A DNA stretch of 25,755 bases from positions 1 to 25,755 of the forward strand of contig JAMCYS010000152.1 of NCBI GenBank assembly GCA_023473795.1, in the 5' to 3' direction. A program made the position numbers and the translations under genes. Source of the DNA: Chloroflexota bacterium (GTDB lineage Bacteria > Chloroflexota > UBA6077 > FW602-bin22 > JAMCYS01). Under the pieces are notes generated by a model. That model did not search any database. It had not been told where the DNA came from and saw nothing but the letters and a program-made list of their open reading frames with translations. How positions within the stretch are numbered: position 1 is the stretch's first letter; each line of letters begins with the position of its first letter. Shown here piece after piece: positions 1,171 through 18,963 of this stretch.

Positions 1171-2457
1171 TTGCTGTCCGCACAGATCAAGCATGAACTG
1201 AGAGCCATCGTCGGTGAGCGCATGGCGCTCACCGACCCCGCGGATCTGGCCACCTACGCCTACGACGCCACCCATTACACGCACACACCCGACGCAGTCG
1301 TCGTGCCGGCCAGTACCGACGAAGTATCCGCCGTGTTGCGCCTGGCGAGCCGAGAACGACTACCGGTGGTGGCCCGTGGCTCCGGCACCAGCCTCTGCGG
1401 CGGGGCCACCCCAATCAGGGGCGGCGTGGTCCTCTCCACGGCACGCTTGAGGCGCATTCTCGACATCAATGCCGCGAGGTCGTGCGCGACCGCCGAGCCC
1501 GGAGTCAATACGGCCGAGTTCATGCGAGCGGTAGAGACCCGCGGCCTCTTCTACCCGCCGGACCCCTCCAGCCAGAGCGTTTCCACGTTGGGCGGCAACG
1601 TCGCTCAGGGTGCGGGCGGGCCGCGCGGCGCCAAGTACGGCAGCCTGCGGGACTACGTCTTAGGCTGCGACGTCATTCTGGCCGACGGCAGCCGTCTGCG
1701 CACGGGCGCGAACACCGTCAAGAACGCCTCCGGCTACGACCTCACCCGCCTCTTCGTCGGCTCCAGGGGCACCCTGTGTTTCTTCAGCCAACTGCGCTTG
1801 CGCCTCTTGCCTCTGCCCGTGGCTCGCCGGCTTCTGCTATTGCCGTGCGCCGATTTGGCGGCAGCCGCCCGGCTGGCGCTGGCGATCACGGCCGCGGGGC
1901 TGCTGCCCAGCCGGCTGGAAGCGCTGAACGACCAGGCAGCGGCAGCTGCCGGCGCGGGACAGACCAGCGCCATCCTGCTTTGCGAACTGGACGGTTCCGC
2001 CCCCGGCGTCGACCGACAAGCGGCTATTGTCGCCAGGCTGGCAGGGGCGCAGAGCGGCGAAGACCGTGCCGGAGAGGCGGCCGAGGCCATTTGGAATCAA
2101 TTGCAGGGCTGGCCGACGCTGGCGCGCGTCCAGGTGCCACGCGACCGCCTACCGGCCCTGTTGGCCAAAGTCGGGGAACTCGGCGGCACGCTCCGCGGCG
2201 ATTGGGGCGTTGTGGCGGGCGCCGGCACGGGAGGCGTACGCTTGGTGGCGCTGCCGGGCACGAAGGACGCCGGGACCGAGCCGGAGGGGTCGGCTCCAGC
2301 GGCGGAGTTCGCAGCCCTGGCCGGCGAGTTCGGCCTCGTCCGACCCGCCGCTGAGCCGGCCGAGAGGTTGCGGCGCAGCCTCAAGTCGGCTTTCGACCCC
2401 CGGGGCATCCTCAACCCCCTGGTGCCGCTTGCGCCGGACGGGAGCCAGGCGAGATGA
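1171..2457 (+). CDS. FAD-binding oxidoreductase subunit of a glycolate-oxidase-like (GlcD/GlcE family) enzyme. The N-terminal half is GlcD-like (PDPSSQ..GGNVA..GG) and the C-terminal half is GlcE-like, lacking the canonical His-containing catalytic motif.
   Basis: FAD_binding_4-type motifs are present (RGSGTS, YPPDPSSQSVSTLGGNVAQGAGGPRGAKYG, NASGYDLTRLFVGSRG). The C-terminus contains SAFDPRGILNP. The gene starts with TTG, and its stop overlaps the downstream start (ATGA at 2454-2457). Confidence 0.8.
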   Translation: MLSAQIKHELRAIVGERMALTDPADLATYAYDATHYTHTPDAVVVPASTDEVSAVLRLASRERLPVVARGSGTSLCGGATPIRGGVVLSTARLRRILDINAARSCATAEPGVNTAEFMRAVETRGLFYPPDPSSQSVSTLGGNVAQGAGGPRGAKYGSLRDYVLGCDVILADGSRLRTGANTVKNASGYDLTRLFVGSRGTLCFFSQLRLRLLPLPVARRLLLLPCADLAAAARLALAITAAGLLPSRLEALNDQAAAAAGAGQTSAILLCELDGSAPGVDRQAAIVARLAGAQSGEDRAGEAAEAIWNQLQGWPTLARVQVPRDRLPALLAKVGELGGTLRGDWGVVAGAGTGGVRLVALPGTKDAGTEPEGSAPAAEFAALAGEFGLVRPAAEPAERLRRSLKSAFDPRGILNPLVPLAPDGSQAR

Positions 2458-3701
2458 GCGACCACAGGGAGGACGGCGAGGGACTGCAGGCGTACTACGA
2501 CGAGGCGCTGCGCTGCGTGCGCTGTGGGCTTTGCCAGGCGGTGTGCCCGGTGTACGCCGTGGAACAGAGCGAGGCCTCGGTTGCGCGCGGCAAGGTTCAG
2601 CTTGCCCGGGCCCTGCTGGAAGGCAGGCTGGAGCCGTCCCCCGCCGTGCGCGAGCGCCTCTTCCTCTGTCTCAACTGCGGCGCCTGCACGGCCAACTGCC
2701 CCAGCGGCGTCAACGTGGCCAAGTTGATGCTCGCCACACGGGCCCAGTTGCTGCGGGACGTCGGCCGGCCCGCCGTAGAAGGGTTGTTGTTACGTCAAGT
2801 TCTGGCCAATCCCCGCTCGCTGGGTCTGGCCGGGGCGGGGCTCGCCCTCTACCGGCGCAGCGGTTTGCGCTGGCTGGCCCACTACGTGGATGCCCTGGCC
2901 ACCCTACCGGCAGGGCTGGCGAAGGCGGAGGCGATGCTCCCCTCCCGGAGCCGCAGCCGGCCCAGGGTAGGACCGGCGCCAGAGCGCCCTCGCTACCGGG
3001 TCGCTTACTTCGCCGGCTGCGTCACCTCGGTGCTGTACCCGGACCTGGCCCAGTCGGTGGTCGCCGTGCTGCGGCAGGAAGGCTGCCAGGTCGTACTGCC
3101 ACGCGGTCTGGGGTGTTGCGGCACACCGCACCGTGCCTACGGCGACGCAGCGGCGGCCCAGAAGCTGGCAGATCGCAATACGCGGGCCCTGAACGAGGCG
3201 AGCGTCGAGGCTGTCGTCACCGACTGCGCGACCTGCGGGGCCGGCCTCAAGGATTACTCCGGCCTACGAGTGCCCGTCTACGACGTCAGCCAGTTCCTGG
3301 TGGAGGAGGCCGGCCTAGTGGCGCCGCGACGGCCACTGGCAGTGCGCGTCACCTATCACGACCCTTGCCATCTAGCTCGCGGCCAGGGAGTGCGCGAGGC
3401 GCCGCGGCGGCTTCTGCGGGCTATACCGGGGTTGGATCTAGTGGAGATGGCGGAAGCCGACCGCTGCTGCGGCGGCGCCGGCACCTTTGCCCTGACCCAC
3501 CCCGAGACCTCGCTGCGCATACTCGAACGCAAAGTGGCCAACGCCGCCGCCACGGGGGCCGCAATCGTCGCCTCCGGCTGTCCTGCCTGCTTGCTGCAAA
3601 TCGGCTATGGGCTGGGGCGACTGGCGGCCGGCGGTCAGGACGGCCCCCGCGAGGCGCTACATCCAGTCGAACTACTGGCGCAGGCCTATGCTCCGCCCTA
3701 G
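2454..3701 (+). CDS. glcF: Glycolate oxidase iron-sulfur subunit GlcF-like (2x 4Fe-4S ferredoxin motifs plus two CCG cysteine-rich domains)
   Basis: The protein has CVRCGLCQAVCP and CLNCGACTANCP ferredoxin motifs. Downstream are two CCG domains (GCCGTP and DRCCGGAG). It is translationally coupled to the upstream FAD subunit. Confidence 0.85.
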   Translation: MSDHREDGEGLQAYYDEALRCVRCGLCQAVCPVYAVEQSEASVARGKVQLARALLEGRLEPSPAVRERLFLCLNCGACTANCPSGVNVAKLMLATRAQLLRDVGRPAVEGLLLRQVLANPRSLGLAGAGLALYRRSGLRWLAHYVDALATLPAGLAKAEAMLPSRSRSRPRVGPAPERPRYRVAYFAGCVTSVLYPDLAQSVVAVLRQEGCQVVLPRGLGCCGTPHRAYGDAAAAQKLADRNTRALNEASVEAVVTDCATCGAGLKDYSGLRVPVYDVSQFLVEEAGLVAPRRPLAVRVTYHDPCHLARGQGVREAPRRLLRAIPGLDLVEMAEADRCCGGAGTFALTHPETSLRILERKVANAAATGAAIVASGCPACLLQIGYGLGRLAAGGQDGPREALHPVELLAQAYAPP

Positions 3702-4228: not shown

Positions 4229-5395
4229 CTACCAGGCGCGCCGATAGATGTCCAGCACTTCCTTTTCGGTAAGCCTGCGGGGGTTGTTGTCCATCAGGCG
4301 CGCCGTGGCCATGGCGCCGGGCACGAAGGCCTCGACCGCCGAGTCCGGCACGCCCACGTCGCGCATGCGCTGCGGAATGCCCACGTCCTGTGACAACTTG
4401 CGCACCGCCTCCACTGCCTTGTAGGCCGCCTCGCGCGGGCAGAGGCCGTCCAGGCACTCCCCCATCGCCTCGGCGACCTTAGCGAACTTGGGGATGTCGG
4501 CCAGGTAATTGTACTCCAGTACGTAGGGCATCATCATCGCATTGGAAACGCCGTGGGCCACTCGGTACGTGCCGCCCAGCGGGTAGGCCAGGGCGTGCAC
4601 CGAGCCGGCGCTGGCGTTGGCCAGGGCGATGCCGGCGTCGAGGCTGCCCAGGGCCATGTCGTAGCGCGCCTGCAGGTCGCCCCCGCGGCAGACGGCAGTG
4701 CGCAGGCTCTTGGCAATCAGCCGGATGGACTCCAAGGACCACAGCTCGGTCAGCGGCGTGGCCTTGACGGCCGTGTAGGACTCGATGGCGTGCGTGAGGG
4801 CATCCATGCCGGTGGCAGCGGTCACCGAGGGCGGCATGCTCACGGTCAGCAGTGGGTCGACGATGGCCACGTCGGCCAGACAATGCGGGCTCACGGTGCC
4901 GACTTTGAGCTTCTGCTCTACGTCCAGGAAGACCGCGTTGTTAGAGATCTCAGCGCCCGTACCGGCGGTGGTTGCAACCAGTATGTAGGGCAGGCCGCGC
5001 TGGGGCACCTTGTCGATGCCGAAATAGTCGCGGATCGAGCCGCCATTCTTGAGAAGGACGGACACGCCCTTGGTGGTGTCCATGGCGCTGCCGCCGCCGA
5101 CGCCGACGAGCAGGTCGAACCCGCCCTGGCGCACCCACTCCACGCAGCGGTCGAGGCTGGCCACGGTCGGCTCCGGCTCAACCTGGTCGTAGACCTCGGC
5201 TGTCAAACTGGCCTTGGACAGTATGCCCTGTATCTGAGCTGCTAGCCCGGCCTTCGCCACCCCAGGGTCGCAGATGATCACCGGTCGCTTGGCCTGGCAG
5301 CGAACCGCTTCGTCGGCGACCTTGTTGACGGCATCGATGCCAAAGTAGATAGTAGCCGGCAGGCGAAATGGCAGAACCTGAGTCGGTAGCACCAT
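4229..5395 (-). CDS. Iron-containing (group III) alcohol dehydrogenase, e.g. 1,2-/1,3-propanediol or butanol dehydrogenase type
   Basis: The GGGSAMD metal/NAD motif is present, and the His-rich metal site and overall 388-aa length match the Fe-ADH family. Confidence 0.85.
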   Translation of the reverse strand: MVLPTQVLPFRLPATIYFGIDAVNKVADEAVRCQAKRPVIICDPGVAKAGLAAQIQGILSKASLTAEVYDQVEPEPTVASLDRCVEWVRQGGFDLLVGVGGGSAMDTTKGVSVLLKNGGSIRDYFGIDKVPQRGLPYILVATTAGTGAEISNNAVFLDVEQKLKVGTVSPHCLADVAIVDPLLTVSMPPSVTAATGMDALTHAIESYTAVKATPLTELWSLESIRLIAKSLRTAVCRGGDLQARYDMALGSLDAGIALANASAGSVHALAYPLGGTYRVAHGVSNAMMMPYVLEYNYLADIPKFAKVAEAMGECLDGLCPREAAYKAVEAVRKLSQDVGIPQRMRDVGVPDSAVEAFVPGAMATARLMDNNPRRLTEKEVLDIYRRAW

Positions 5396-5592: not shown

Positions 5593-6003
5593 CTAAGCCG
5601 GCTGGCCGGCCAAACGGGCGCGGATGAAGTTGGCGATGTCGGCAGTGGAGCTGCCGGGGCCGAAGGTCGCCGCCACACCCATTTCCTGCAAGGCGCGCAT
5701 GTCCTCGTCGGGTATGATCCCGCCCACGAGGACGACGATGTCCGTCAGCTGCTTCTGCCGCACCAACTCCATTACGCGCGGTACCAGGTCCATATGCGCC
5801 CCGGAGAGGATGCTCAAGCCAATGACGTCGGCGTCTTCCTGCAGCGCCGACTCGACGACCATTTCGGGGGTCTGCCTGAGCCCGGTGTAGATCACCTCCA
5901 TCCCGGCGTCGCGCAGCGCCCGGGCGAGGACCTTGACCCCCCGGTCGTGGCCATCCAGCCCCGGCTTGGCCAGCAGTACCCTGATTTTGCCTCTCTCAAC
6001 CAT
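5593..6003 (-). CDS. icmB: Coenzyme-B12-binding small subunit of a split acyl-CoA mutase (IcmB-like, 136 aa), with DxHxxG motif (DGHDRG)
   Basis: ATG at 6003..6001 is preceded by GAGAGGTG. The ORF-track start at 6012 is GTG without an RBS. Rossmann-like B12-domain motifs are present ([14 protein letters not shown]). Confidence 0.8.
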
Positions 6004-6037
6004 GGTCCACACCTCTCACGTGCTGAGAGCCGAGGCC

Positions 6038-7711
6038 CTAGAGCACCGGCACCTCCATATAGGATCCGTAGACCTCGCGCAGCGCCTGAGTCATCTCGCC
6101 CAGCGTGCAATAAGCACGCACCGCGTCCAGCAGATAGGGCATCACGTTCTCCCCAGCCGCGGCCGCCTTGCTCAGAGCGCGCAGGCAGCGCTCGGCCTGC
6201 GCCCGGTCGCGCCGGCGGCGCACCTCCGCCAGGCGCGCCAGCTGCCGGCGCTCGCCCTCGGGGTCCATGCGCAGCAGAGGCACCTGCACCGGCTCGTCCG
6301 TGGTAAAGCCGTTGACCCCCACGACGATGCGCTCCCCGCTCTCCACTTCTTGCTGGTAGCGGAACGATGCCTCGGCGATCTCCTGTTGCGGGTAGTTGAC
6401 GCCAATCGCCGCCACCATCCCGCCCAGACGGTCGATGCGCTCGATGTACTCACGCGCCTGGCGCTCCAGCTCGTCGGTCAACGCTTCGACGAAGTACGAT
6501 CCCCCCAATGGATCGACGGTGTTCGTCACGCCGCTCTCATTGGCGATGATCTGCTGAGTGCGTAGGGCCACCCGCACGGCGCTTGCCGAGGGCAGGGCCA
6601 GGGCCTCGTCCATGGAATTAGTGTGCAGGGACTGGGTACCGCCCAGCACCGCCGCCAGGGCCTGCAGGGCCACCCGCACCACGTTGTTCTCCGGCTGCTG
6701 GGCCGTCAACGAACAGCCCGCCGTCTGGGTATGGAAGCGCAGCATCCAGGAGCTCGGGTCCTTGGCGCCGAAGCGCTCGCGCATGATCTTGGCCCATAGC
6801 CGCCGGGCCGCCCGGTACTTGGCGATCTCCTCAAAGAAGTCGCTATGGGCGTTGAAGAAGAACGAGAGCCGAGGGGCGAAGTCATCCAGGGCCAGGCCGC
6901 AGTCGAGCGACGCCTGCACGTAGGCGATGCCATCGGCCAGTGTGAAGGCCAGTTCCTGCGCCGCGGTCGAGCCGGCCTCCCGGATGTGATAGCCGCTGAT
7001 CGACACCGTGTTCCATTTGGGCAGGTGGCGGCTGCCAAATTCGATGGTGTCAATCACCAGTTTGAGCGCCGGCTCGGGCGGAAACAGGAACTCCTTCTGC
7101 GCTGTGTACTCTTTCAGGATGTCGTTCTGAAGGGTGCCGCCGAGCTCACCGAACGGGATGCCCTGCTTCTCGGCCGTCACCAGGTACATCGCCCAGATGA
7201 TGGCCGCTGGGCCGTTGATCGTCATCGAGGTCGTGACCTCGTCGAGGCGGATCCCATCGAAGAGGATTTCCATGTCGGCCAGCGAAGAAACGGCCACTCC
7301 GCACTTGCCGAACTCCCCCAGCGCCTGGGGGTCATCGGTGTCGAGCCCATACAGAGTCGGCATATCGAAAGCCACCGACAGGCCGCTCTCGCCGTGAGAC
7401 AGCAGGTATTTGAAGCGCTCGTTCGTTTCTTCAGCGGCGCCAAAGCCGGCGAACAGGCGCATCGTCCAGAGCCGGCCGCGATACATCGTGGGGTGGACGC
7501 CCCGGGTGAAGGGATACTCGCCGGGGAAACCGATTTCCCGCTGATAGGCGGCGACCTCGTCCGCCCCGGGCTCGTAGAGTCTCTGGGTCTGTACCCCGGA
7601 GATGGTGGTGAACTCAGATCGGCGCTCGGGCAGGCGCTCCAGCGACTTCGCCAGAGTAGTCTTCTCCCAGCGCGCGCGGTCGGCGGCGAGCCGTTCGCGG
7701 TCGTCCTGCAT
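6038..7711 (-). CDS. icmA: Acyl-CoA mutase large (catalytic TIM-barrel) subunit with an isobutyryl-CoA-mutase-type active-site signature. In methylmalonyl-CoA mutase the corresponding positions are Tyr89 and Arg207; here they are Phe (TMRLFAGFG) and Gln ([12 protein letters not shown]).
   Basis: Strong similarity to the methylmalonyl-CoA mutase alpha catalytic domain throughout ([33 protein letters not shown]). Specificity residues were read from the alignment-equivalent motifs. There is no C-terminal B12 domain, so this is a split enzyme. Confidence 0.8.
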
Positions 7712-7807: not shown

Positions 7808-8230
7808 CTAGGTCTCAGGCTCGTGCCCCTTCTCCGCCAGCTCGACGAGCACGCCCCCGGTGGCTTTAGGGTGCAGAAAACCGACCCGCGAGCCGTGCGC
7901 GCCCGGCGCCGCCGCTCCCGAGCCGATCACCGCGCCCCGGGCCGATAGTTCGCCGAGCAGCTCGTCCAAACCTTCCACTTCCAGGCAGATGTGGTGTATG
8001 CCTTCACCACGCTTGTCGAGGTATTTGCCAACGGGGGTGTCCGGGCCGGTCGGCTCGAGCAATTCCAGCGTGGCCTCGCCCAGGGGCAGGAAGGCGACCT
8101 TCACCCCCTGGGCGGGCACGGTTTCGTAGTGATCGGCCGCGAGTCCTAGCGCCTCCTCGTAGAAGCGCACCGCTGCCTCCGCATCCCTGACGGCGATGCC
8201 GACGTGGTCGATCTTCTTGACACGTGGCAT
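7808..8230 (-). CDS. mce: Methylmalonyl-CoA epimerase (VOC/glyoxalase-fold)
   Basis: IDHVGIAVRD...HHICLEV...GGVLVEL metal-ligand pattern and 140-aa size. It is in the same operon context as a mutase. Confidence 0.8.
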   Translation of the reverse strand: MPRVKKIDHVGIAVRDAEAAVRFYEEALGLAADHYETVPAQGVKVAFLPLGEATLELLEPTGPDTPVGKYLDKRGEGIHHICLEVEGLDELLGELSARGAVIGSGAAAPGAHGSRVGFLHPKATGGVLVELAEKGHEPET

Positions 8231-8239
8231 TGGCGGAAC

Positions 8240-9757
8240 CTAGCCCTCGTGCCCGTTGCCGGCAGCCGGGGCCTTGGCAGTTGTGTCTTCCGCCTGCAAG
8301 TCGGCTAACGCCGGTATCTTGCGCAGAACGTCCTGCAACTTGAGCCCGGTGAGCGCCTCGATAACCGCCGGCATCTGGGCCATGATCTCGGTTATGTCCC
8401 GCGTAATCTTAGACGCTCCAGCGCCGTGACCGTCAGATCCGCCAATCATGACGATGCGGTCCGTCTTGCTGAGTGGTTCGGCGACGGCCCTGGCCAGCTC
8501 CGGCAGGCGCTCGACGATCATCTGGATTATGGCCGCCTCGTTGTACTCGTGCCAAGCCTCCGCCTTGCTCGACATAGCCGTCGCCTCGGCCGCGCCACGG
8601 GCCTTGGTCACGTCGGCGGCGGTCAGGCCGCGCGCGCGCTCGATGTCGACCTGCGCCAGGCCCTGCGCCCGCTCGGCGTCGGCCTGGCCCTGGCCCATCA
8701 GCCTTGCCGCCTCGGACTTGCCAGTCGCCTCGGCCCGCAGCTTGTACTGCTCGGCCTCGGCCAGCGTCTGGATACGAGTGCGCTCCGCCTCGGCCGGTTT
8801 CTGGACGTTGGCGACCAGTTCCCGCTCCCGACGGGCAACTTCCTTCTCCTGAACCAGGGTCTCCTGTTCCTTCTGGACTATCTGGACCTTCACCTCTTCG
8901 GCCTTGACGAGCTGCTCCGTCTTGTACTTCTGCAGGTCGTAGGCGAGGTCGGCCTCAGCCTTCTGCTGGTTGACTAGCATGTTGTACTGAGCGACCTTGA
9001 CGTTGTAGTCACGCTGCGACTCAGCAATTTTGGTCTGGGCCTCGATCTCGCCGATCTTGCCCAGCTGTTCGGCCTGCGCCCGCTTGATCTGGGTCTCCCG
9101 AGCGGCCTCGGCCTCGGCGATGGCCGCGTCGCGGCGCACCTCGGCGATGCGCGGCTTGCCCAGGGCCTCCAGGTAGCCCTGCTTGTCGTGCACGTCCTTG
9201 ATGGTGAAACTGATGACGGTGAAGCCCATGTTGCTGAAGTCGGTCGAGGATACTTCCTGTACCCGCTGGGCGAAGGCCTCGCGATTACGATAGACTTCCT
9301 CGACGGTCATCGTACCCATAATGGCCCGCAAGTGGCCCTCGAGGGTTTGCTTGACGACCTCTTTGCGCTCCTCGACGTTCTTGGAGAGGAACTGCTCTGC
9401 CGCGGTCGCGATCGAAACCAGGTCGCTTTGCACTTTGATCTGGGCCACGCCTTCCACGATGATGGGCACACCTTGCGAGGTGTAGACGTCCGGCGTGCCC
9501 ACGTCGATGGTCATCGTCTCCATCGACAGGGTCTTGAACGACTCGACGACCGGCATGACTATCGTGCCGCCGCCGCGCACGATGCGAAAGCCGACGTCCC
9601 GCGCCTGCCCACTCTCGTCGCGCAGCTTGCCGCCCCGACCATAGATGATCAGCGCCTCGTTGGGACCGACCTTACGATAGCGCGAGGCTGCCAACGCTAT
9701 GAGAAGAAAGATGCCTAGGACGATGCCTGCCACTAGCAGCGTGCTGGTGAAATCCAC
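8240..9757 (-). CDS. floT: Flotillin-like SPFH/band-7 protein (FloT/YuaG type) with N-terminal membrane anchor and Ala/Glu-rich coiled coil
   Basis: Close resemblance to B. subtilis YuaG along the SPFH domain (IVRGGGT, IATAAEQFL, GHLRAIMGTMTVEEVYRNRE, LGKPRIAEV). GTG start at 9757. The upstream nfeD partner is present. Confidence 0.9.
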   Translation of the reverse strand: MDFTSTLLVAGIVLGIFLLIALAASRYRKVGPNEALIIYGRGGKLRDESGQARDVGFRIVRGGGTIVMPVVESFKTLSMETMTIDVGTPDVYTSQGVPIIVEGVAQIKVQSDLVSIATAAEQFLSKNVEERKEVVKQTLEGHLRAIMGTMTVEEVYRNREAFAQRVQEVSSTDFSNMGFTVISFTIKDVHDKQGYLEALGKPRIAEVRRDAAIAEAEAARETQIKRAQAEQLGKIGEIEAQTKIAESQRDYNVKVAQYNMLVNQQKAEADLAYDLQKYKTEQLVKAEEVKVQIVQKEQETLVQEKEVARRERELVANVQKPAEAERTRIQTLAEAEQYKLRAEATGKSEAARLMGQGQADAERAQGLAQVDIERARGLTAADVTKARGAAEATAMSSKAEAWHEYNEAAIIQMIVERLPELARAVAEPLSKTDRIVMIGGSDGHGAGASKITRDITEIMAQMPAVIEALTGLKLQDVLRKIPALADLQAEDTTAKAPAAGNGHEG

Positions 9758-9822: not shown

Positions 9823-10449
9823 CTACCCCTCGTCAGAGGCCGAACCGAGGGCCTCGTCCTCCATTGACACTACCTCGGCCACACCCTTGTGTAAGCGTAC
9901 GATCGCCACCCTCGTGCCACTGGCCAAGGGCACGCCGCTGGCAGACCGCGCCGGCAATTGCATGCGGCTGCCACGGGCGGAGAAGACGATCTCGCCCAGC
10001 CCCTCGGCCGGAATGCTGACCCGCACCTTGGCCAGAGCCTGGGCCACCTCTCTCATGTCCGGCGAGCTACTGCCCTGGGCCCTCACTAGCGGCCGCCACA
10101 CCGCTAGGAAGAATGCCCCGGCAACCAGTACCGCCCCGACCGTGGCGAGAAGGAGCGAAAGCCAATCGGGCAGGCCAATATACCTGTAGGTCAACAGGCC
10201 AATGCCCCCCACGGCCAGAGAGAAAGCCGCTATGGTAAGAGAGTTGACCGGGGATACATGGTGGGCGCCGACGTCGTGGCCAGCGTCAAGCTCGTGCCCG
10301 CCGCCCAAGTCGTGCGACAAGTCCACGTCGTGGCCGCCGGCTATGTCGTGGCCGCCCAGACCACCGGCGAGCAAGCCGAACACGCCGTAGCCGAGCCCAA
10401 AGAGGAACGCCACCCAATAGAACAGTTCCAGCCCGTTTAGCCCACCCAT
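9823..10449 (-). CDS. nfeD: NfeD/YuaF-like membrane protein (3 TM segments plus C-terminal OB-fold beta-barrel), partner of flotillin. It contains an unusual His/Asp-rich GHD repeat loop.
   Basis: TM helices plus C-terminal VRVSIPAEGLGEIVFSARGSRMQLPARS...VAIVRLHKGVAEVV OB-like domain. Gene order nfeD-floT matches yuaF-yuaG. Strong RBS GGGAGGAGGG before ATG 10449. Confidence 0.75.
   Translation of the reverse strand: MGGLNGLELFYWVAFLFGLGYGVFGLLAGGLGGHDIAGGHDVDLSHDLGGGHELDAGHDVGAHHVSPVNSLTIAAFSLAVGGIGLLTYRYIGLPDWLSLLLATVGAVLVAGAFFLAVWRPLVRAQGSSSPDMREVAQALAKVRVSIPAEGLGEIVFSARGSRMQLPARSASGVPLASGTRVAIVRLHKGVAEVVSMEDEALGSASDEG
10255..10356 (-). repeat. In-frame nucleotide tandem repeats GTCGTG(G/C)CC(GCC) encoding GHD/HD units (GGHDIAGGHDVDLSHDLGGGHELDAGHDVGAHH) inside nfeD
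   Basis: gtcgtggcc/gtcgtgccc/gtcgtgcga motifs recur about 6 times at roughly 18-21 nt spacing on the plus strand. Their reverse complement encodes Gly-His-Asp. Confidence 0.6.
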
Positions 10450-10472: not shown

Positions 10473-11227
10473 CTAGCCGCGTTTGCCCTCGCGGTACTCC
10501 TGAGCGTAGCGCCGGTTGTTGCTGACCACCTGAGCGGCGAAGTCCCGCAGGTGATTCGTCACCGGCGCCAGCGACCGAGCCCGCTCCGGCGTGTCCACGA
10601 TCGCCCCTGCCGGCACCAGGCGCCCATCCGGTATCTCTACGTCGGAGATGAACGCGCCGTGCCAGACTACGCAGCCGCGTCCGATCGTGCTGTTCACCAC
10701 CATCGTCCGAAAGCCGACGAAAGCACCGTCGCCGATAGCCACCGGGCCGTGCACGAACGCTTGGTGGGCCAAGGATACGTTCTTCCCGACCCAGACGGCA
10801 TACTGCTGGCCGCCCACGACAACCGAGCGCCCTTCCATGGCGTGGACGACGACCCCGTCCTGCACGTTACTACCATCGCCAATGGCTATCGGCGCCCCGC
10901 TGTCACCCCTGATTGAGGACCCCGGGGCGACGAAGACCTCGGCCCCCAATTGTACGTCGCCCACCACGCTCGCGGCAGGACTGATGAAGGCGCCCCGACC
11001 GAGGCGAACGGTGCGACCCACCTCTGCCGCCGGCATGGCGGCTGCCGCGGGTGGCGCGGGCCGGGCCGGAGGAGCAGCGACCGGCGTCTGAGCCGCAAAC
11101 GCCTCGCTCCCTGGGGCATCCGGCTCGGTTAGAGAACGCCCCAGGTTACCCCCGCCAGCCGGCAGGTCTGAGCCCGGCATGGGCATGTAGCCGATGGGCT
11201 GCATGCCCCCTTTGGGTTGGCCCTCGC

Positions 11228-11231
<4 letters not shown>
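10473..11231 (-). CDS. Gamma-class carbonic anhydrase family (left-handed beta-helix, hexapeptide repeat) protein with about 95-aa Pro/Ala-rich low-complexity N-terminal extension; all three Cam-type zinc-ligand His positions conserved
   Basis: [11 protein letters not shown] and [12 protein letters not shown] match the Cam motifs (H81, H117, H122 equivalents). The start ATG 11231..11229 overlaps the upstream mutase stop (ATGA). The ORF-track upstream extension has no RBS and is rejected. Confidence 0.75.
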
Positions 11232-12919
<1,688 letters not shown>

Positions 12920-12930
12920 CCAATCCTCGC

Positions 12931-13461
12931 CTATGAAACGATCGCCAGCACATCCCCGGCGTTCACCGTGGAGCCGGCGCTCACCGGCAAGGAGGTCACC
13001 CGGCCGGCGGCGGTGCTCTTGATCTCGTTTTCCATCTTCATGGCCTCGAGGACCACCAGCCCGGCGCCGTAGGCCACGTTGTCGCCCACTTTGACCTGCA
13101 CGCGCAGGATCTTGCCGGGCATCGGCGCCCGCATCACCGTGCCCGAGGCCGCGGGAGCCGTCGGCGCGGTGGCAGGAGCGGGTGACGTCCGCGGCCCCAC
13201 GGCTGCCGGGGCAGGGCGTGGGGCAGCAGGGGCGAGCGCCGGCGCGGGGCGGGTCGCCGAGTCCAGCCGAACCGCGTAGGTCTTGCCGTCCAGCGTCACC
13301 TGGTCGCCCTTCAGCTCGACCTGGAGCGTCTTGCCGCCCACCTCGACCGTGGCCGAGTTGCCGCGGCGGCGGGCGCTAGCGGGAACCGGTTTGCCGTCGA
13401 CAGTCACCTCGCCCGGTTTGACCGTGACCTCGTAGTCTTTGCCGTCGATCGTTATCTTCAC
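12931..13461 (-). CDS. Biotin carboxyl carrier subunit, transcarboxylase 1.3S / decarboxylase gamma type (N-terminal [12 protein letters not shown] domain, Ala/Pro linker, C-terminal biotinyl domain with EAMKM)
   Basis: AMKM biotinylation motif. The N-terminus resembles the P. shermanii 1.3S and GcdC N-termini. GTG start at 13461. Confidence 0.85.
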
Positions 13462-13476
13462 TGTCGCAACCTCACC

Positions 13477-14961
13477 CTACCTCATCAGTCCCAGACGGCC
13501 GGATAGCTTCCAGCCAGAGAGTCCGGCCAGGGCCTCGGGCACGCGCTCCCGCTGCGCCGGGGCGAGAAACGCCGCGGCAATGGCAGCGACCGTCTCCGCG
13601 TCCAGCTTGGGCTCGGGCTCAACCTCGCCCGCCCGCCGTTTGAAGAACTCCAGGGCCACCTGGGGGAAGATCGCGTAGGAGATCACGTCCTCGTCGCTCT
13701 GCGCATAGGGCTTGGACCCCTCCACGGCCTTGTCCCACTCGGGCTCCAACAGGTCGGCGGGGCGGACGTCGATCGTCTCCTCGCCGTCGATGGTCTTCTC
13801 CTTGATGGCAGGGTCGACCGGAATCGCTGGCCGGCCGTAGAACCCCTTCACGTACAGCTTGACCTCTTTGGGCACCATCTTGTAGCGCTCGCCCAGGAGG
13901 ACGTTCAGCACCGCCTGCGTGCCCACGATCTGACTGGAGGGGGTGACCAAAGGCGGGTAGCCAAGGTCCTGGCGCACCCGCGGCACCTCGGCCAGCACTT
14001 CCTTCAGGCGGTCTTCCGCCTTCTGCTCACGCAGCTGGGAGACTAGGTTAGAGATCATCCCGCCCGGAATCTGGAAGGTGAGCACGTTCGTATCGACGGG
14101 CGCCATACCCATCTCGAACTTGCCGTATTCCTTGCGTACCTTGCCGAAGTACTCCGCGATCTCCGACAGCAAATCGAGGTCGAGGCCCGTGTCGCGAGGC
14201 GTGCCCTTGAGCGCGGCCACAATGCTCTCCGTGGGCGGCTGACCAGAGCCCATCGAGATGCTGGAGATGGAGGTATCGACGACGTCGATGCCCGCTTCCG
14301 CCGCCTTGAGGTAGGCCATCGACGCCATACCGCTGGTGTAGTGGCAGTGCAACTGCACCGGCAGGCCGACCTTCTCCTTCAGCTGCTTGGTAAGATCGTA
14401 TGACTCGTAGGGGTCGATGAGACCGGCCATGTCCTTGATGCAGATCGAATCGGCGCCCATGTCGCGCAGCGTCTTGCCCATCTCCACAAACGTGTCGATG
14501 TTGTGGTAGGGGCTGCGCGTGTAGCAGATCGTCGCCTGCACGTGGCCGCCGACATGCTTAGTCACTTCCATCGCATAGCGCATGTTGCGCACGTCGTTCA
14601 AGGCGTCGAAGATGCGGAAGATGTCCATGCCATTTTCTTTGGCCTTGACGACGAAATGCTCCACGATGTCGTCGGCGTAGTTGCGGTAGCCGACGATGTT
14701 TTGGCCGCGCAACAGCATCTGCAGCTTAGTGTTCTTGAACGCCCCGCGCAGTTGGCGCAGGCGCTCCCAGGGGTCTTCGTTCAAGAAGCGCATGCAACTG
14801 TCGAAAGTCGCGCCGCCCCAGACCTCGAGGGAGTGGTAACCCACCCTGTCCAGCTTCTCGGCAATGGGCAGCATGTGCTCGATGCGCATGCGCGTCGCCA
14901 GCAGCGATTGGTGCGCGTCGCGCAGGATTGTGTCGGTGATGCCGAGCGGGTTCTTCTCCAC
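13477..14961 (-). CDS. Transcarboxylase 5S subunit / oxaloacetate-decarboxylase-alpha-type carboxyltransferase (pyruvate carboxyltransferase TIM barrel, no fused biotinyl domain)
   Basis: ILRDAHQSL, IKDMAG (carbamyl-Lys motif) and LHCHYTSG metal-site motifs. The 494-aa length matches the 5S subunit. Confidence 0.9.
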   Translation of the reverse strand: MEKNPLGITDTILRDAHQSLLATRMRIEHMLPIAEKLDRVGYHSLEVWGGATFDSCMRFLNEDPWERLRQLRGAFKNTKLQMLLRGQNIVGYRNYADDIVEHFVVKAKENGMDIFRIFDALNDVRNMRYAMEVTKHVGGHVQATICYTRSPYHNIDTFVEMGKTLRDMGADSICIKDMAGLIDPYESYDLTKQLKEKVGLPVQLHCHYTSGMASMAYLKAAEAGIDVVDTSISSISMGSGQPPTESIVAALKGTPRDTGLDLDLLSEIAEYFGKVRKEYGKFEMGMAPVDTNVLTFQIPGGMISNLVSQLREQKAEDRLKEVLAEVPRVRQDLGYPPLVTPSSQIVGTQAVLNVLLGERYKMVPKEVKLYVKGFYGRPAIPVDPAIKEKTIDGEETIDVRPADLLEPEWDKAVEGSKPYAQSDEDVISYAIFPQVALEFFKRRAGEVEPEPKLDAETVAAIAAAFLAPAQRERVPEALAGLSGWKLSGRLGLMR

Positions 14962-14979: not shown

Positions 14980-16539
14980 CTACAGCGGTATATTGCCGTG
15001 CTTCTTCGGCGGCAGGGTATCGCGTTTGTCCTTGAGCATCTCCAGGGCGGCGATCAGCTTGGGCCTGGTGTAGCGAGGCTGGATCACATCGTCCAACAAG
15101 CCGTGGGCCGCGGCGACGTACGGGTTGGCGAACTTGTCGCGGTACTGCTGCACCTTCTCCTGCAAAGTAGCCTCAGGGTCGGGCGAGGACTCGATCTCCC
15201 GCCGGAAGAGGATGTTGGCCGCCCCGTCGGGGCCCATCACCGCGATTTCGGCCGTGGGCCAGGCGAGGTTGATATCGCCGCGCAGGGCCTTGCTACTCAT
15301 GACGATGTAGGCACCGCCGTAGGCCTTGCGCGTGATCAGCGAAATCTTGGGCACGGTCGCCTCGCTGTAAGCGTAAATCATTTTGGCCCCATGACGAATG
15401 ATACCGCCCTGCTCCTGGTCGAGACCAGGCATGAAGCCCGGCACGTCGGCGATGGTGACGAGCGGCACGTTGAAGCAGTCGCAGAAGCGAACGAAGCGCG
15501 CTGCCTTGTCGGAGGCGTTGATATCGATGACCCCCGCTAGCACCTTGGGCTGCTGCGCCACTACGCCCACCGGCCGCCCGCCGAGACGCGCGAAGCCGAC
15601 GATCATGTTCTGGGCGAACTCCTTGTGGACCTCGAACAGGTCCCCGTCGTCCACGATGCGACCGATCACTTCCAGCATATCGTAGGGTTGGTTAGGGGAA
15701 TCCGGGATCAGCACGTCCAGCTCGGGGTCCGTGCGATCCGCCGGATCGAGCGAGACTCCCAGGGGCGGGTCGTCCATATTGTTGGAGGGCAGGAAGCCGA
15801 GCAGGCGGCGGATGTCCTGCAGGCAGGTCTGCTCGTCCGGCTCGGCGAAATGGGCGACGCCGCTGATGCCGGCGTGCGTCTGTGCCCCGCCCAGCTGATC
15901 GAAGCTGACGTCCTCATGGGTGACCGCCTTGACCACGGCCGGGCCGGTGATAAACATGTGGCTAGTGCCATTGACCATAAACACGAAGTCCGTCAGGGCC
16001 GGCGAGTAGCAGGCGCCGCCGGCCGAGGGGCCGAGGATGGCCGAGACCTGGGGAATGACGCCCGAGGCCAGCGTGTTGCGCAGGAAGATCTCGGCGTAGC
16101 CGGCAAGGCTGAGCACGCCCTCCTGGATGCGCGCGCCGCCGGAGTCGTTCAGCCCGATCAACGGCGCCCCGTTCTTCATCGACAGGTCCATCACCTTGCA
16201 GATCTTGTTGGCATGCACCTCGGACAATGAGCCGCCGAAGACGGTGAAGTCCTGCGAAAATACGTACACCAGTCTGCCGTCCACCTTGCCAAAGCCCGTG
16301 ACCACGCTGTCGCCTAGGTACTGCTGCTCGGCCAGCCCGAAGTCGGTGCAGCGATGCAGGACAAACTGATCCAGCTCGCTGAACGAACCGGGATCGAGCA
16401 AGGCGTCGATCCGTTCGCGGGCGGTCAGCTTGCCTCTCTTGTGCTGCTGCTCGACGCGCTGGGGGCCGCCACCCTGCTCCGCCTGCCGCTGCAGTTCCCG
16501 CAGCTCGGAGATGCGATTGGCCTCAACCATACTGTTCAC
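14980..16539 (-). CDS. Methylmalonyl-CoA carboxyltransferase 12S subunit (propionyl-CoA carboxylase beta family)
   Basis: High similarity to the P. shermanii 12S subunit, including the C-terminal KKHGNIPL. Carboxyltransferase motifs are present ([22 protein letters not shown]). The annotated start is GTG at 16539. ATG at 16530 (MVEANRI) has a better-spaced GAGGTGA RBS and may be the true start. Confidence 0.9.
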
Positions 16540-16563: not shown

Positions 16564-17433
16564 CTAGGTGCCATACTCGTAGAAGCCGCGGCCGGACTTG
16601 CGTCCCAGGTGTCCCGCCTCGACCATCCGGTGTAGCAGAGGGCAGGGGCGGTACTTGGAATCGCCGAAGCCCCGGTGCAGCACCTCCATCACCTGTAAAC
16701 ACACATCCAGACCAATCAGATCGGCCAACTGTAGCGGGCCAAGCGGATGATTCATCCCCAGGTGCATGACGGTGTCGATGGCCTCCCGCTGGGCAACGCC
16801 CTCCATGAGGCAGTAGATGGCTTCGTTGATCATCGGCATGAGCACCCGGTTGGACACGAAGCCTGGATAGTCGTTCACCGCCACCGGCGTCTTGCCCAGG
16901 CGCTCCGCCAGCTGCTGTACCAACCCCATGGTGGCGTCGCTCGTCAGTTCGCCGCGCACCACTTCCACTAGCGCCATCACGGGCACCGGGTTGAAGAAGT
17001 GCATGCCGACCACCTGACCCGGCCGCCGCGTTCCGGCCCCCAAGGTAGTGACGGAGATCGAGGAGGTGTTGGAGGCCAGGACGGCCTCATGGCGGCACAA
17101 GGCGTCCAGGCGCCGGAAGACGTCAATCTTGACCGGCAACTGCTCCACCGCCGCCTCGACCACCAGGTCGCAGCGGGACAGGTCCTCCAAAGACAGAGAA
17201 GGGGCAATGCCGGCCAGCGCCGCCTCGCGTGCCGCCGGTTCGAGGCGCCCCTTGTCCACGGCGCGGTCGAGGTTGCGCCGGATGGTGGCCAGGCCGCGGT
17301 CGAGGGCGGCCCGGTCCACCTCGACCAGGGTCACGGCGAAGCCGGCACCGGCGAACACCTGGGCAATGCCGTTGCCCATAGTACCTGCCCCAACCACCCC
17401 AACCTTCCGAATCTCCTCAGCTTCCATTGCCAT
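16564..17433 (-). CDS. hbd: 3-hydroxybutyryl-CoA / 3-hydroxyacyl-CoA dehydrogenase (NAD-binding)
   Basis: KVGVVGAGTMGNGIAQVFA Rossmann motif and typical Hbd length. The start is probably ATG 17433 or 17427 (AGGAAAGG RBS). The GTG at 17463 in the ORF track is less likely. Confidence 0.85.
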   Translation of the reverse strand: MAMEAEEIRKVGVVGAGTMGNGIAQVFAGAGFAVTLVEVDRAALDRGLATIRRNLDRAVDKGRLEPAAREAALAGIAPSLSLEDLSRCDLVVEAAVEQLPVKIDVFRRLDALCRHEAVLASNTSSISVTTLGAGTRRPGQVVGMHFFNPVPVMALVEVVRGELTSDATMGLVQQLAERLGKTPVAVNDYPGFVSNRVLMPMINEAIYCLMEGVAQREAIDTVMHLGMNHPLGPLQLADLIGLDVCLQVMEVLHRGFGDSKYRPCPLLHRMVEAGHLGRKSGRGFYEYGT

Positions 17434-17483
17434 CCTTTCCTGGTCCAACGGGAGACGAACCACGGATCAACGCGGATCCTGGA

Positions 17484-17611: not shown

Positions 17612-18802
17612 CTAGGCTAACTCGACGCTCAGGGCGACGGCCTCGCCCCCGCCGAGGCAGGCCACGGCCAGGCCGCGTTCGCCGCCTCGCTGGCGCAAGG
17701 CATAGATCAGTGTCGTCAAGATGCGCGCGCCGCTGGCGCCGATAGGATGGCCCAAGGCCACCGCGCCGCCGTGGACGTTTACCTTCTGCCAATCCCAGCC
17801 CAAGTCCTTGCCGTTGGCCAGCACCTGGGAGGCGAAGGCTTCGTTGATCTCGATGAGGTCGAAATCGTTCAGACCCAGACCGGTCTGGGACAGCAGTTTG
17901 CGAATGGCCAGCGGCGGGGCAGCGAAGAGCAGCAGCGGCTCCAGGGCAGCCGTGGCATAGCCCGTGACGCGCGCCAGCGCGGGCAGGCCGAGCTCCCGGC
18001 CGCGCCCGCCCTCGACTACCACTAGGGCGGCGGCGCCGTCGCTCAGGCCGGGGGCGTTGCCGGCCGTCACCGTGCCGCCCTCCGGCTGGAAGGCCGGCTG
18101 CAGACGCGCGAGCGCCTCCAGGCTCGTGTCGGGGCGGGGCGTCTCGTCGGCGGCGACGACCACGCTGCCCTTCTTCTGCGGCACCTCGACCGGAACGATC
18201 TCCGCCGCGAACCGGCCCGACGACGCCGCGGCGACGGCCTTGCGGTGGCTCGCCAGGGCGAACTCGTCCTGTTCGCGACGGCTAATACCATAGAGCTTGG
18301 CGATGTGTTCGGCGGAGTTGCCCATGTGGTGGTGCTCGAATGAGCACCAGAGGCCATCGTGTACCGTGGCGTCTACGATCTCGCCGTTGCCCAGACGGTA
18401 GCCGGTGCGGGCACGGGGCAGTAGGTAGGGGCCGTTGCTCATGCTCTCCATGCCCCCAGCCACGTAGATGGAGCCGTCTCCGGCCTTGATGGCTTGCGCC
18501 GCCAGCATGACCGCCTTCAGGCCCGAACCGCAGACCTTGTTGACGGTGACGGCCGGCACGCTCACGGGCACACCAGCCCGGACCGCGGCCTGGCGAGCAG
18601 GGGCCATGCCCACGCCCGCCTGGACGACGTTGCCCATTATCACTTCGTCCACGGCGGCGGGGTCGACACCCGCCCGGCGGATAGATTCACGAATGGCGAC
18701 GGCGCCCAACTCGGGCGCCGTTAGTGGTTGGAGGGCACCGAGGAAACGGCCCGTGGGAATGCGCGCGGCACTAGCGATCACAACCTTAGGGGAGTCCGCC
18801 AT
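17612..18802 (-). CDS. Acetyl-CoA C-acetyltransferase (thiolase II)
   Basis: VNKVCGSGLKAV (nucleophilic Cys), GHPIGASGARIL (His) and C-terminal Cys in ACLGGGEAVA. ATG at 18802 with GGGAGGAAGG RBS. The 25-aa ORF-track extension is rejected. Confidence 0.9.
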   Translation of the reverse strand: MADSPKVVIASAARIPTGRFLGALQPLTAPELGAVAIRESIRRAGVDPAAVDEVIMGNVVQAGVGMAPARQAAVRAGVPVSVPAVTVNKVCGSGLKAVMLAAQAIKAGDGSIYVAGGMESMSNGPYLLPRARTGYRLGNGEIVDATVHDGLWCSFEHHHMGNSAEHIAKLYGISRREQDEFALASHRKAVAAASSGRFAAEIVPVEVPQKKGSVVVAADETPRPDTSLEALARLQPAFQPEGGTVTAGNAPGLSDGAAALVVVEGGRGRELGLPALARVTGYATAALEPLLLFAAPPLAIRKLLSQTGLGLNDFDLIEINEAFASQVLANGKDLGWDWQKVNVHGGAVALGHPIGASGARILTTLIYALRQRGGERGLAVACLGGGEAVALSVELA

Positions 18803-18867
18803 TGCCTTCCTCCCTTGACGCAACTCCGCGCCTCGCCGTGCAGCGTCTGGCCCTGGGTATCCCGCAC

Positions 18868-18876
18868 ATAATAGCA
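18868..18876 (-). promoter_or_regulatory. Extended -10-like element TGCTATTAT (minus strand) about 66 nt upstream of the thiolase ATG
   Basis: Plus-strand ataatagca at 18868-18876. There is no clear -35, consistent with an extended -10 promoter. Inference only. Confidence 0.3.
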
Positions 18877-18963
18877 CAACGCAACCTGCCCCGCCAGAAC
18901 GAAGATCCCCTTCCCGCTAGGCAGGAAGGGGGTTGTCAGTAACCAGCAGATGTTGGTCTGTTG

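Follow-up and report, generated by a model that had tools for sequence, protein, structure and literature searches.

In this work, a gene at positions 10473-11231 on the minus strand of a 25,755-nucleotide stretch of DNA from a Chloroflexota bacterium (contig JAMCYS010000152.1 of assembly GCA_023473795.1; hereafter the window, with 60-72% G+C along its length) was characterized computationally. It encodes a protein resembling the gamma-carbonic anhydrases (gamma-CA), and a database search found this protein to be 100% identical to P0001, an entry named 'hypothetical protein M1401_18805 [Chloroflexi bacterium]'. The gene begins on the stop codon of a methylmalonyl-coenzyme A (CoA) mutase gene and is followed by genes for an NfeD-type membrane protein and a flotillin. 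The best explanation for the protein is that it belongs, as a lineage-specific form, to the CcmM-like, short-loop branch within the family of Cam-type gamma-CAs, and it is probably a tethered accessory of the mutase pathway rather than an ordinary soluble carbonic anhydrase. The features of the gene are listed below, with residues matched to those of Cam by counting along the PDB alignment (Cam chain residue 31 being residue 80 here).

10473-11231, minus strand: gamma-CA-like open reading frame, 252 amino acids plus a stop codon at 10473-10475
11228-11243, minus strand: translational-coupling junction, consisting of a Shine-Dalgarno (SD) sequence, spacer and start/stop overlap
11172-11204, minus strand: conserved N-terminal motif, residues 10-20, consensus I-x-P-I-G-Y-[IM]-x-M-P-G
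11082-11171, minus strand: disordered linker rich in Pro, Ala and Gly, residues 21-50, AlphaFold2 predicted local distance difference test score (pLDDT) 51-63
11007-11081, minus strand: N-terminal arm, residues 51-75, predicted to be ordered, counterpart of the N-terminal segment in mature Cam
10476-11006, minus strand: left-handed beta-helix domain and C-terminal helix, residues 76-252, delimited by profile, PDB alignment, AlphaFold2 and Foldseek
10842-10844, 10764-10766 and 10749-10751, minus strand: metal ligands His130, His156 and His161, equivalent to Cam His81, His117 and His122
10899-10901, minus strand: Ser111, in place of the catalytically important Glu62 of Cam
10833-10835, minus strand: Glu133, aligned with Glu84, the main proton shuttle in Cam
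Arg108 and Asp110: conserved active-site residues, equivalent to Cam Arg59 and Asp61
Asn122 and Gln124 (in NVQDG): hydrogen-bond network, equivalent to Cam Asn73 and Gln75
Asn239: hydrogen-bond network, equivalent to Cam Asn202

An earlier note on this DNA, made from the letters alone, had proposed a gamma-CA homolog and called for its subfamily to be settled by comparison with Cam, CamH, YrdA, PaaY and CcmM. The homology was borne out by PDB, NCBIfam and Foldseek matches far beyond chance, and the comparison placed the protein with the Cam/CcmM type and not with PaaY, CaiE or YrdA. Pfam recognized hexapeptide repeats only. The top NCBIfam family was the N-domain of CcmM (NF053794, 194.8 bits, E = 2.1e-57, cut-off 550 bits) and the second was Cam-type carbonic anhydrase (NF040597, 159.4 bits, E = 1e-46, cut-off 380 bits), both matches falling below their cut-offs, while PaaY (TIGR02287) reached 59.5 bits against a cut-off of 319.6 and CaiE (NF010150) 49.7 bits against 305. 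In a sequence search of the PDB, the best matches were Thermosynechococcus CcmM (3kwc, 8.9e-45) and the Cam enzyme from Methanosarcina thermophila (1thj, 7e-40), with CamH/YrdA-type proteins at 1e-19 or worse (YrdA itself at 4.1e-09). Across NCBIfam and the PDB, hexapeptide acyltransferases of the LpxA/LpxD/GlmU type matched marginally over parts of the helix only (E from 1e-10 to 1e-3). The same two structures, 1thj and 3kwc, came on top with a probability of 1.00 when the AlphaFold2 model, in which the domain has a pLDDT of about 70-90 and the beta-helix starts near residue 76, was searched with Foldseek. Judged by its sequence, the protein thus clearly descends from the Cam/CcmM branch of gamma-carbonic anhydrases, and its homology predicts a homotrimer that carries three His3 metal sites between its subunits. 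It cannot, however, be counted as a regular member of either equivalog family, Cam or CcmM: it has no Glu62 and scores far under both cut-offs, SSUL repeats are lacking (the chain ends 5 residues past the C-terminal helix, and PF00101, the SSUL/RbcS-like repeat, has no match in it) and there is no carboxysome context.

As the earlier note had read them, the three Cam-type metal-binding histidines and the NVQDG motif are kept: on alignment no ligand is lost, and both hydrogen-bonding residues of the motif find their Cam counterparts. The same note had taken IRGDSG as the site where a proton-shuttle glutamate of Cam is replaced. This reading was right in that a glutamate, Glu62, is replaced by Ser111, and wrong in that it is not the main proton shuttle of Cam, which is Glu84 and aligns with a Glu here too (Glu133). 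According to a review on thermostable carbonic anhydrases, roles in catalysis and proton transfer are proven for both Glu62 and Glu84, and Glu62 is termed 'catalytically important' (PMC4519908). The acidic loop that follows the His81 equivalent is about 10 residues shorter than that of Cam (Leu83-Asn96) and is in this respect like that of CcmM; CcmM209 is active despite its short acidic loop (PMC4519908).

The replacement of Glu62 sets a whole clade apart. In a search of 5.8 billion proteins, 14 sequences came out at 48-78% identity, 13 of which are full length; loci reached via a neighbouring gene added another two, for a clade of 16 sequences. Across it, the position of Glu62 holds Ser, Thr or Ala in 16 of 16 sequences (Ala in two), whereas Glu is found in 106 of 106 other close homologs by alignment, and in 104 of 106 by a stricter regular expression. 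By contrast, Arg108, Asp110, Asn122, Gln124, Asp125, His130, His156 and His161 are invariant at these identities and Asn239 is present in at least 90%, while the Glu84-equivalent position carries Glu in 11 of 16 members and Asp, Ser or Pro in the others. Further clade-specific substitutions lie near conserved positions (Gln120 to Leu or Phe, Met135 to Phe, Phe140 to Val and Pro152 to an invariant His), and clade-specific residues match CcmM of Thermosynechococcus at Cam positions 120, 135, 136, 151, 158 and 195. In a neighbour-joining tree, which is rough and carries no support values, the Chloroflexota clade was monophyletic, with a short-loop group that includes CcmM sequences as its sister. 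The clade is also rare: a single full-length representative (P0012) and a single fragment (P0147) were all that an exhaustive HMMER search turned up in 1.84 billion representatives of clusters at 50% identity, and among the matches listed from GTDB species representatives and JGI metagenomes there was no clade member and no N-terminal motif, the matches being ordinary Cam/CcmM-type genes at 37-53% identity. Three linked traits appear to set this clade apart, namely the loss of Glu62, a motif-bearing arm and a mutase/NfeD/flotillin gene context.

The strict conservation of the ligands and the second shell argues for a metal site that is working rather than decayed and is probably still in use, while loss of the Glu62 carboxylate argues that its chemistry may no longer be standard fast CO2 hydration. 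A Ser or Thr at this position could still hydrogen-bond metal-bound solvent, and two members have Ala; whether the protein acts as a carbonic anhydrase is therefore best treated as uncertain. These two sides of the site bear on two other explanations. In one, the protein would be an ordinary, active, soluble gamma-carbonic anhydrase that moves bicarbonate for a biotin-dependent carboxylation or decarboxylation, with the arm either a spacer without specificity or an element for weak membrane binding or self-association. The retention of all three histidines and of the equivalents of Asn73, Gln75, Asn202, Arg59, Asp61 and Glu84, the activity of CcmM209 with its short acidic loop (PMC4519908) and the hydrogen bond that Ser or Thr might offer to metal-bound water speak for it. 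We nevertheless regard it as unlikely, given that Glu62 is lost clade-wide and in no other close homolog, with Ala in two members, and that the scores are far under the NCBIfam equivalog cut-offs (159 versus 380 and 195 versus 550 bits). In the other, the domain would be a catalytically dead, CcmM-like scaffold without chemistry at its metal sites, its trimer and three motif arms cross-linking pathway enzymes or flotillin assemblies and possibly driving their clustering. That the best profile is the CcmM N-domain, that the clade is sister to CcmM-like sequences, that Glu62 is gone and that the CcmM gamma-CA-like domain itself organizes by binding peptides (PMC8580825) are all compatible with this. 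Invariance of metal-binding and second-shell residues over 48-78% identity is however unexpected for an unused site, and we consider a dead scaffold rather improbable.

The N-terminal part of the protein had been described in the earlier note as a disordered, low-complexity tail of about 95 residues that resembles a flexible tether or linker. AlphaFold2 predicts disorder for only about 50 residues (pLDDT 51-56 for residues 1-40 and 63 for residues 41-50), and an ordered arm, as in Cam, for residues 51-75 (pLDDT 84-87). The disordered part is not mere low complexity either, because it holds a previously unremarked conserved motif at residues 10-20, in which Ile13, Gly14, Tyr15 and Met18 are invariant and which opens all fifteen full-length sequences of the clade (13 full-length homologs and 2 from loci). 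Clade members are on average 70.5% identical to one another over the motif and 65.7% over the domain, but 17.6% over the linker, which spans 37-53 residues in the homologs and consists to about 30-60% of Pro and Ala. The idea of a tether is thus supported and sharpened, as a conserved motif ahead of a variable Pro/Ala linker. Short linear motifs for docking or targeting typically look like this, a conserved island on a variable, Pro-rich spacer, and we suggest that the peptide may act as one here. It weighs on the explanations above as well: an unspecific spacer on an ordinary carbonic anhydrase would not retain an invariant I-G-Y..M core, while a trivalent motif-plus-linker architecture would suit a dead scaffold, for which the absence of any predicted self-docking of the motif onto the domain is in turn a difficulty.

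The codons of the motif differ synonymously among loci (ATC/ATT/ATA, CCC/CCT/CCG, TAC/TAT and CAG/CAA). A 12-bp near-perfect palindrome at 11181-11208 (GGGCATGTAGCC-GATG-GGCTGCATGCCC), flagged as terminator-like on the plus strand, sits exactly in the motif codons for GMQPIGYMP, and on the mRNA strand it gives a hairpin of -15.9 kcal/mol at 25 nucleotides into the open reading frame. An RNA-level explanation of motif conservation was rejected, however, since the palindrome was not conserved in 10 homologous loci; together with the synonymous variation of the codons, this indicates that the peptide, rather than an RNA hairpin, is under selection. A targeting peptide shared with neighbouring genes was likewise discarded, since a regular expression for the motif, run on the window and the loci searched, had no match outside the N-termini of gamma-CA-like proteins.

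A wrongly called start, with the true one further downstream, for example at Met66, would reduce the protein to a plain gamma-CA domain and the N-terminal extension to an annotation artefact, an objection that the earlier note had itself raised. In its favour are an in-frame ATG at codon 66 and one homolog (P0009, 191 amino acids on a 1.5-kb contig) that was called without the tail. Codon 66 is, however, the only internal ATG near the domain and has no ribosome-binding site ahead of it, whereas the ATG at codon 1 (11229-11231) is preceded by the SD sequence GGAGG at 11239-11243 with a spacer of 7 nucleotides. The motif is kept in 15 homologs despite synonymous codon changes, the frame remains open across linkers of differing length, and in 11 of 12 loci the start codon shares bases with the stop of the mutase gene. 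Because the motif codons vary synonymously while the peptide is conserved, the tail is not a wrong-start artefact, and with a strong SD at the ATG and none at codon 66 we regard the objection as refuted and a downstream true start as scarcely credible. A longer, GTG-started frame reaching 11279 is mechanically possible, and the start in all homologs is at the ATG position. This ATG shares bases with the mutase TGA (11228-11230) in the sequence ATGA, and the homologs overlap their mutase stop by 1 or 4 nucleotides in 11 of 12 contexts. The ATGA overlap and the GGAGG 7 nucleotides upstream agree with the translational coupling to the mutase that had been suggested before, and such coupling would give the gamma-CA-like protein in a fixed ratio with the mutase.

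The gene lies within a long minus-strand operon, whose other genes are as follows in the direction of transcription.

17612-18877, minus strand: thiolase
16564-17463, minus strand: 3-hydroxybutyryl-CoA dehydrogenase
14980-16539, minus strand: biotin-dependent 12S carboxyltransferase (Pfam/NCBIfam)
13477-14961, minus strand: 5S subunit of PycB/OadA type (Pfam/NCBIfam)
12931-13461, minus strand: biotin carrier (Pfam/NCBIfam)
11228-12919, minus strand: methylmalonyl-CoA mutase large subunit MCM1, 563 amino acids, no B12 domain (PF01642, 1.3e-228; TIGR00641)
9823-10449, minus strand: NfeD/YqiJ-type membrane protein, 208 amino acids (the identical P0121 carries PF25842, NfeD_TM)
8240-9757, minus strand: flotillin, FloT-type SPFH, 505 amino acids (PF01145 Band_7, 2.8e-32; NCBIfam FloT, 1.5e-148)
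7808-8230, minus strand: glyoxalase-family gene (methylmalonyl-CoA epimerase-like)
6038-7711, minus strand: second mutase large subunit MCM2
5593-6012, minus strand: B12-binding small subunit
4229-5395, minus strand: Fe-alcohol dehydrogenase

The NfeD-type gene follows the gamma-CA-like gene after 23 nucleotides. Intergenic gaps range from -4 to 65 nucleotides in the core from mutase to epimerase (11228-8230) and reach up to 197 nucleotides elsewhere in the operon, and the gamma-CA-like gene appears to be co-transcribed with the NfeD/flotillin pair. This pair corresponds to the membrane scaffold pair that had been predicted downstream, and the presence of the same gene next to mutase genes in other genomes, which had been left as a check, was confirmed: the order MCM1-type mutase, gamma-CA-like gene, NfeD and flotillin was found in 12 of 12 contexts, even in a genome whose NfeD has just 43% identity. 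On the four homologous contigs that span the region, the pathway genes on either side are kept as well, with small differences (the second mutase missing or a pyrophosphatase inserted) that never interrupt the three-gene block. By contrast, a more distant NfeD (34% identity, locus L176) occurs in a plain two-gene pair with flotillin, and no mutase, NfeD or flotillin was found in 160 loci (1.88 Mb) around other Cam/CcmM-type genes, these control loci being those of ordinary genes from the GTDB and JGI scans. The linkage is therefore specific to the motif-bearing clade without Glu62, and the link to NfeD and flotillin is at least as informative as that to the carboxyl-transfer genes. No carboxysome genes (ccmK/L/N, rbcLS) were found in the 25.7-kb window or the homologous loci, which hold CoA-pathway, NfeD and flotillin genes instead. 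A link between Dehalococcoidia Cam-type genes and 5S/biotin carboxyl carrier protein (BCCP) genes (loci L031 and L035) was considered and dropped, as the gene at L031 is an ordinary membrane-anchored, Glu62-containing Cam that is not in an operon with them.

The operon also bears on what the protein might do. The earlier note had seen in the neighbouring biotin-dependent genes a case for local handling of inorganic carbon, and the adjacency of the 12S, 5S and BCCP genes, together with the general role of carbonic anhydrases in feeding bicarbonate to biotin carboxylases, would favour an ordinary carbonic anhydrase. There is however no biotin carboxylase gene in the operon, and a 12S/5S/1.3S gene set without one is a transcarboxylase set. 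Transcarboxylase (EC 2.1.3.1) exchanges no free CO2 or bicarbonate, so that the rationale is weakened, and with it the case for an ordinary carbonic anhydrase. Translational coupling to the mutase could instead point to a neofunctionalized acyl-CoA metalloenzyme, such as a PaaY-like proofreading thioesterase or a decarboxylase that removes dead-end or wrongly formed CoA esters arising from the mutase; loss of Glu62 would then make room in the site for a substrate that is larger or anionic. PaaY and CaiE are generally known to work in CoA-thioester pathways and give weak profile matches here, and clade-specific substitutions (at 120, 135, 140 and 152) lie near conserved positions. The protein belongs however to the Cam/CcmM branch and not to that of PaaY, CaiE or YrdA (59.5 bits for PaaY against 319.6), no CoA-binding feature was identified, and we reach this reading purely by inference; we hold it to be very unlikely.

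Several observations concern the neighbouring genes themselves. Two mutase large subunits share the operon with one B12-binding small subunit. MCM1 has RQYAGY and ARGTY, with Tyr and Arg at what we take to be the positions of MCM Tyr89 and Arg207, while MCM2 has RLFAGF and AQKEF, a Phe/Gln pair presumably characteristic of mutases of the isobutyryl-CoA type. In the PDB, MCM2 scores highest against the 2-hydroxyisobutyryl-CoA mutase HcmA (4r3u, 566 bits compared with 520 for MCM). These residues and this match, together with the thiolase and 3-hydroxybutyryl-CoA dehydrogenase genes, suggest a second, C4 acyl-CoA rearrangement in the same operon. In the NfeD-type protein, AlphaFold2 predicts three transmembrane helices and a C-terminal five-strand barrel (pLDDT 65-94). 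The loop between its first two predicted transmembrane helices (residues about 31-65) is rich in His and Asp (GGHDIAGGHDVDLSHDLGGGHELDAGHDVGAHH), consisting of H-D/H-E repeats whose number differs between homologs, and could bind metal. Beyond the operon, a flank at 1171-3701 on the plus strand carries genes for a flavin adenine dinucleotide (FAD)-binding oxidase and Fe-S/CCG-domain proteins (glycolate or lactate oxidase-like), an MFS transporter and a phosphodiesterase-family protein. The same flanking genes occur in the window and on two homologous contigs (L001 and L175), so that synteny extends past the operon.

Other relatives differ in architecture from the clade. A group of Chloroflexota Cam-type proteins of about 315 amino acids (P0017, P0026, P0033 and P0038; locus L026 and others) has a conserved N-terminal region of its own, of the form …RKAEGGL(S/T)L(R/Q)F(A/S)FD(L/I)PK…W(T/S)HQQ(M/L)(I/L)NG…, followed by a transmembrane helix. 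Since Glu62 and the long acidic loop are kept and a transmembrane helix is present, these appear to be membrane-anchored canonical Cam enzymes. Two secreted-looking proteins of about 820 amino acids (P0144 and P0146) consist of three Cam-type domains in tandem, whose acidic-loop region carries additional insertions, and owe their top scores in the representative library only to the repeated domains. In P0015 (408 amino acids), which belongs to the sister group of the clade, a short-loop gamma-CA domain is fused to a region of the sulfate-transporter family (PF00916).

Taken together, these results favour a tethered accessory metalloprotein that is docked by its motif on a partner from the same operon and binds or slowly interconverts CO2 and bicarbonate near the biotin-dependent carboxyl-transfer enzymes, a reading to which we assign a probability of about 0.5. 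The predicted trimer would be a tethered, potentially trivalent accessory subunit, and the motif of each arm would serve as a short linear docking peptide. Its partner would most plausibly be the cytoplasmic face of the NfeD/flotillin assembly, with the mutase as the alternative, and once docked, the conserved metal site might bind CO2 and bicarbonate, or interconvert them slowly, beside the biotin-dependent enzymes. There is precedent for parts of this scheme. Trimeric gamma-CA-like domains on flexible linkers organize multi-enzyme assemblies by short peptides, as in CcmM and with the C-terminal peptide of CcaA (PMC8580825). The NfeD barrel of S. aureus is cytosolic and binds flotillin, which holds client proteins (PMC11222466), and flotillins form large cage-like assemblies on membranes (PMC11260169).

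Several points weigh against a docked, tethered metalloprotein. The motif is not docked in cis in the AlphaFold2 monomer model, and when NfeD and the gamma-CA-like protein were modelled as one fused chain, the motif had a pLDDT of about 30 with no sign of docking, although this is a weak negative, obtained with no paired alignment and with the gamma-CA part poorly modelled. A genuine transcarboxylase needs no free CO2 or bicarbonate, and loss of Glu62 may abolish carbonic anhydrase activity altogether. The clade is moreover small and probably phylogenetically narrow, so that its gene order could partly reflect shared ancestry.

A broader form of the tethered-accessory reading can be formulated in which these Chloroflexota assemble the enzymes of methylmalonyl-CoA (Wood-Werkman-type) metabolism at a flotillin/NfeD membrane assembly. 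The gamma-CA-like trimer would then be a CcmM-like adaptor outside carboxysomes, its arms docking on flotillin/NfeD or on the enzymes and its remodelled metal site handling CO2/bicarbonate or a carboxylated intermediate on the spot. We put this forward as a speculative and rather doubtful proposal; in the literature, no prior description was found that links gamma-CA, flotillin/NfeD and CoA mutases. If true, it would represent the first flotillin-organized metabolic module with a dedicated, genetically encoded targeting peptide. Bacterial flotillins and NfeD are widespread, and their specific clients and the way these are recognized are poorly defined; a flotillin/NfeD pair inside a central-carbon operon, together with a soluble, motif-armed protein, offers a concrete candidate for a pair of client and targeting signal. 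The clade also represents a natural experiment, in a lineage related to CcmM, in which the active site is preserved except for Glu62, and can show whether such proteins stay carbonic anhydrases, become scaffolds or take on other chemistry. If nothing more than weak carbonic anhydrase activity and a spacer emerges, the protein would be a minor variant of the family.

In comparison with known systems, the protein resembles Cam of Methanosarcina thermophila (1THJ, 1QRG) in its left-handed beta-helix and C-terminal helix, with about 40% identity in the domain, and in the conservation of His81, His117, His122, Arg59, Asp61, Asn73, Gln75 and Asn202, with a Glu aligned to Glu84 as well. It differs from Cam in the Ser for Glu62, the shortened acidic loop (Leu83-Asn96 in Cam) and a score below the cut-off; it has no signal peptide but a cytoplasmic, disordered, motif-bearing arm instead, and its gene lies in a CoA-mutase/flotillin operon. 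To the N-domain of CcmM (3KWC, 7O4Z) it is linked by the best profile and PDB match, the short acidic loop, signature residues, the sister position in the tree and the layout, predicted here, of a trimeric hub on flexible linkers, CcmM assembling through short peptides (PMC8580825). Unlike CcmM, which keeps Glu62, it lacks SSUL (RbcS-like) repeats and the Cys pair of the redox-switch helix and has no carboxysome or Rubisco genes nearby, and its flexible element is N-terminal and carries the peptide itself, whereas CcmM receives the peptide. With the PaaY thioesterase, CaiE and YrdA (CamH-type), it shares the superfamily and the metal-ligand scaffold, as well as their occurrence as accessory genes in acyl-CoA operons, but these belong to a different subfamily and have neither an N-terminal arm nor a link to flotillin. 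Finally, its NfeD and flotillin neighbours form the same two-gene module as in NfeD-flotillin pairs of the yqiJK/yuaFG type and in FloA-NfeD of S. aureus. Flotillin-associated rhodopsin clusters are reported likewise to attach a third, specific gene to the NfeD-flotillin module (PMC10308929). The attached gene here encodes a soluble gamma-CA-like protein, and the module is embedded in an operon of central metabolism.

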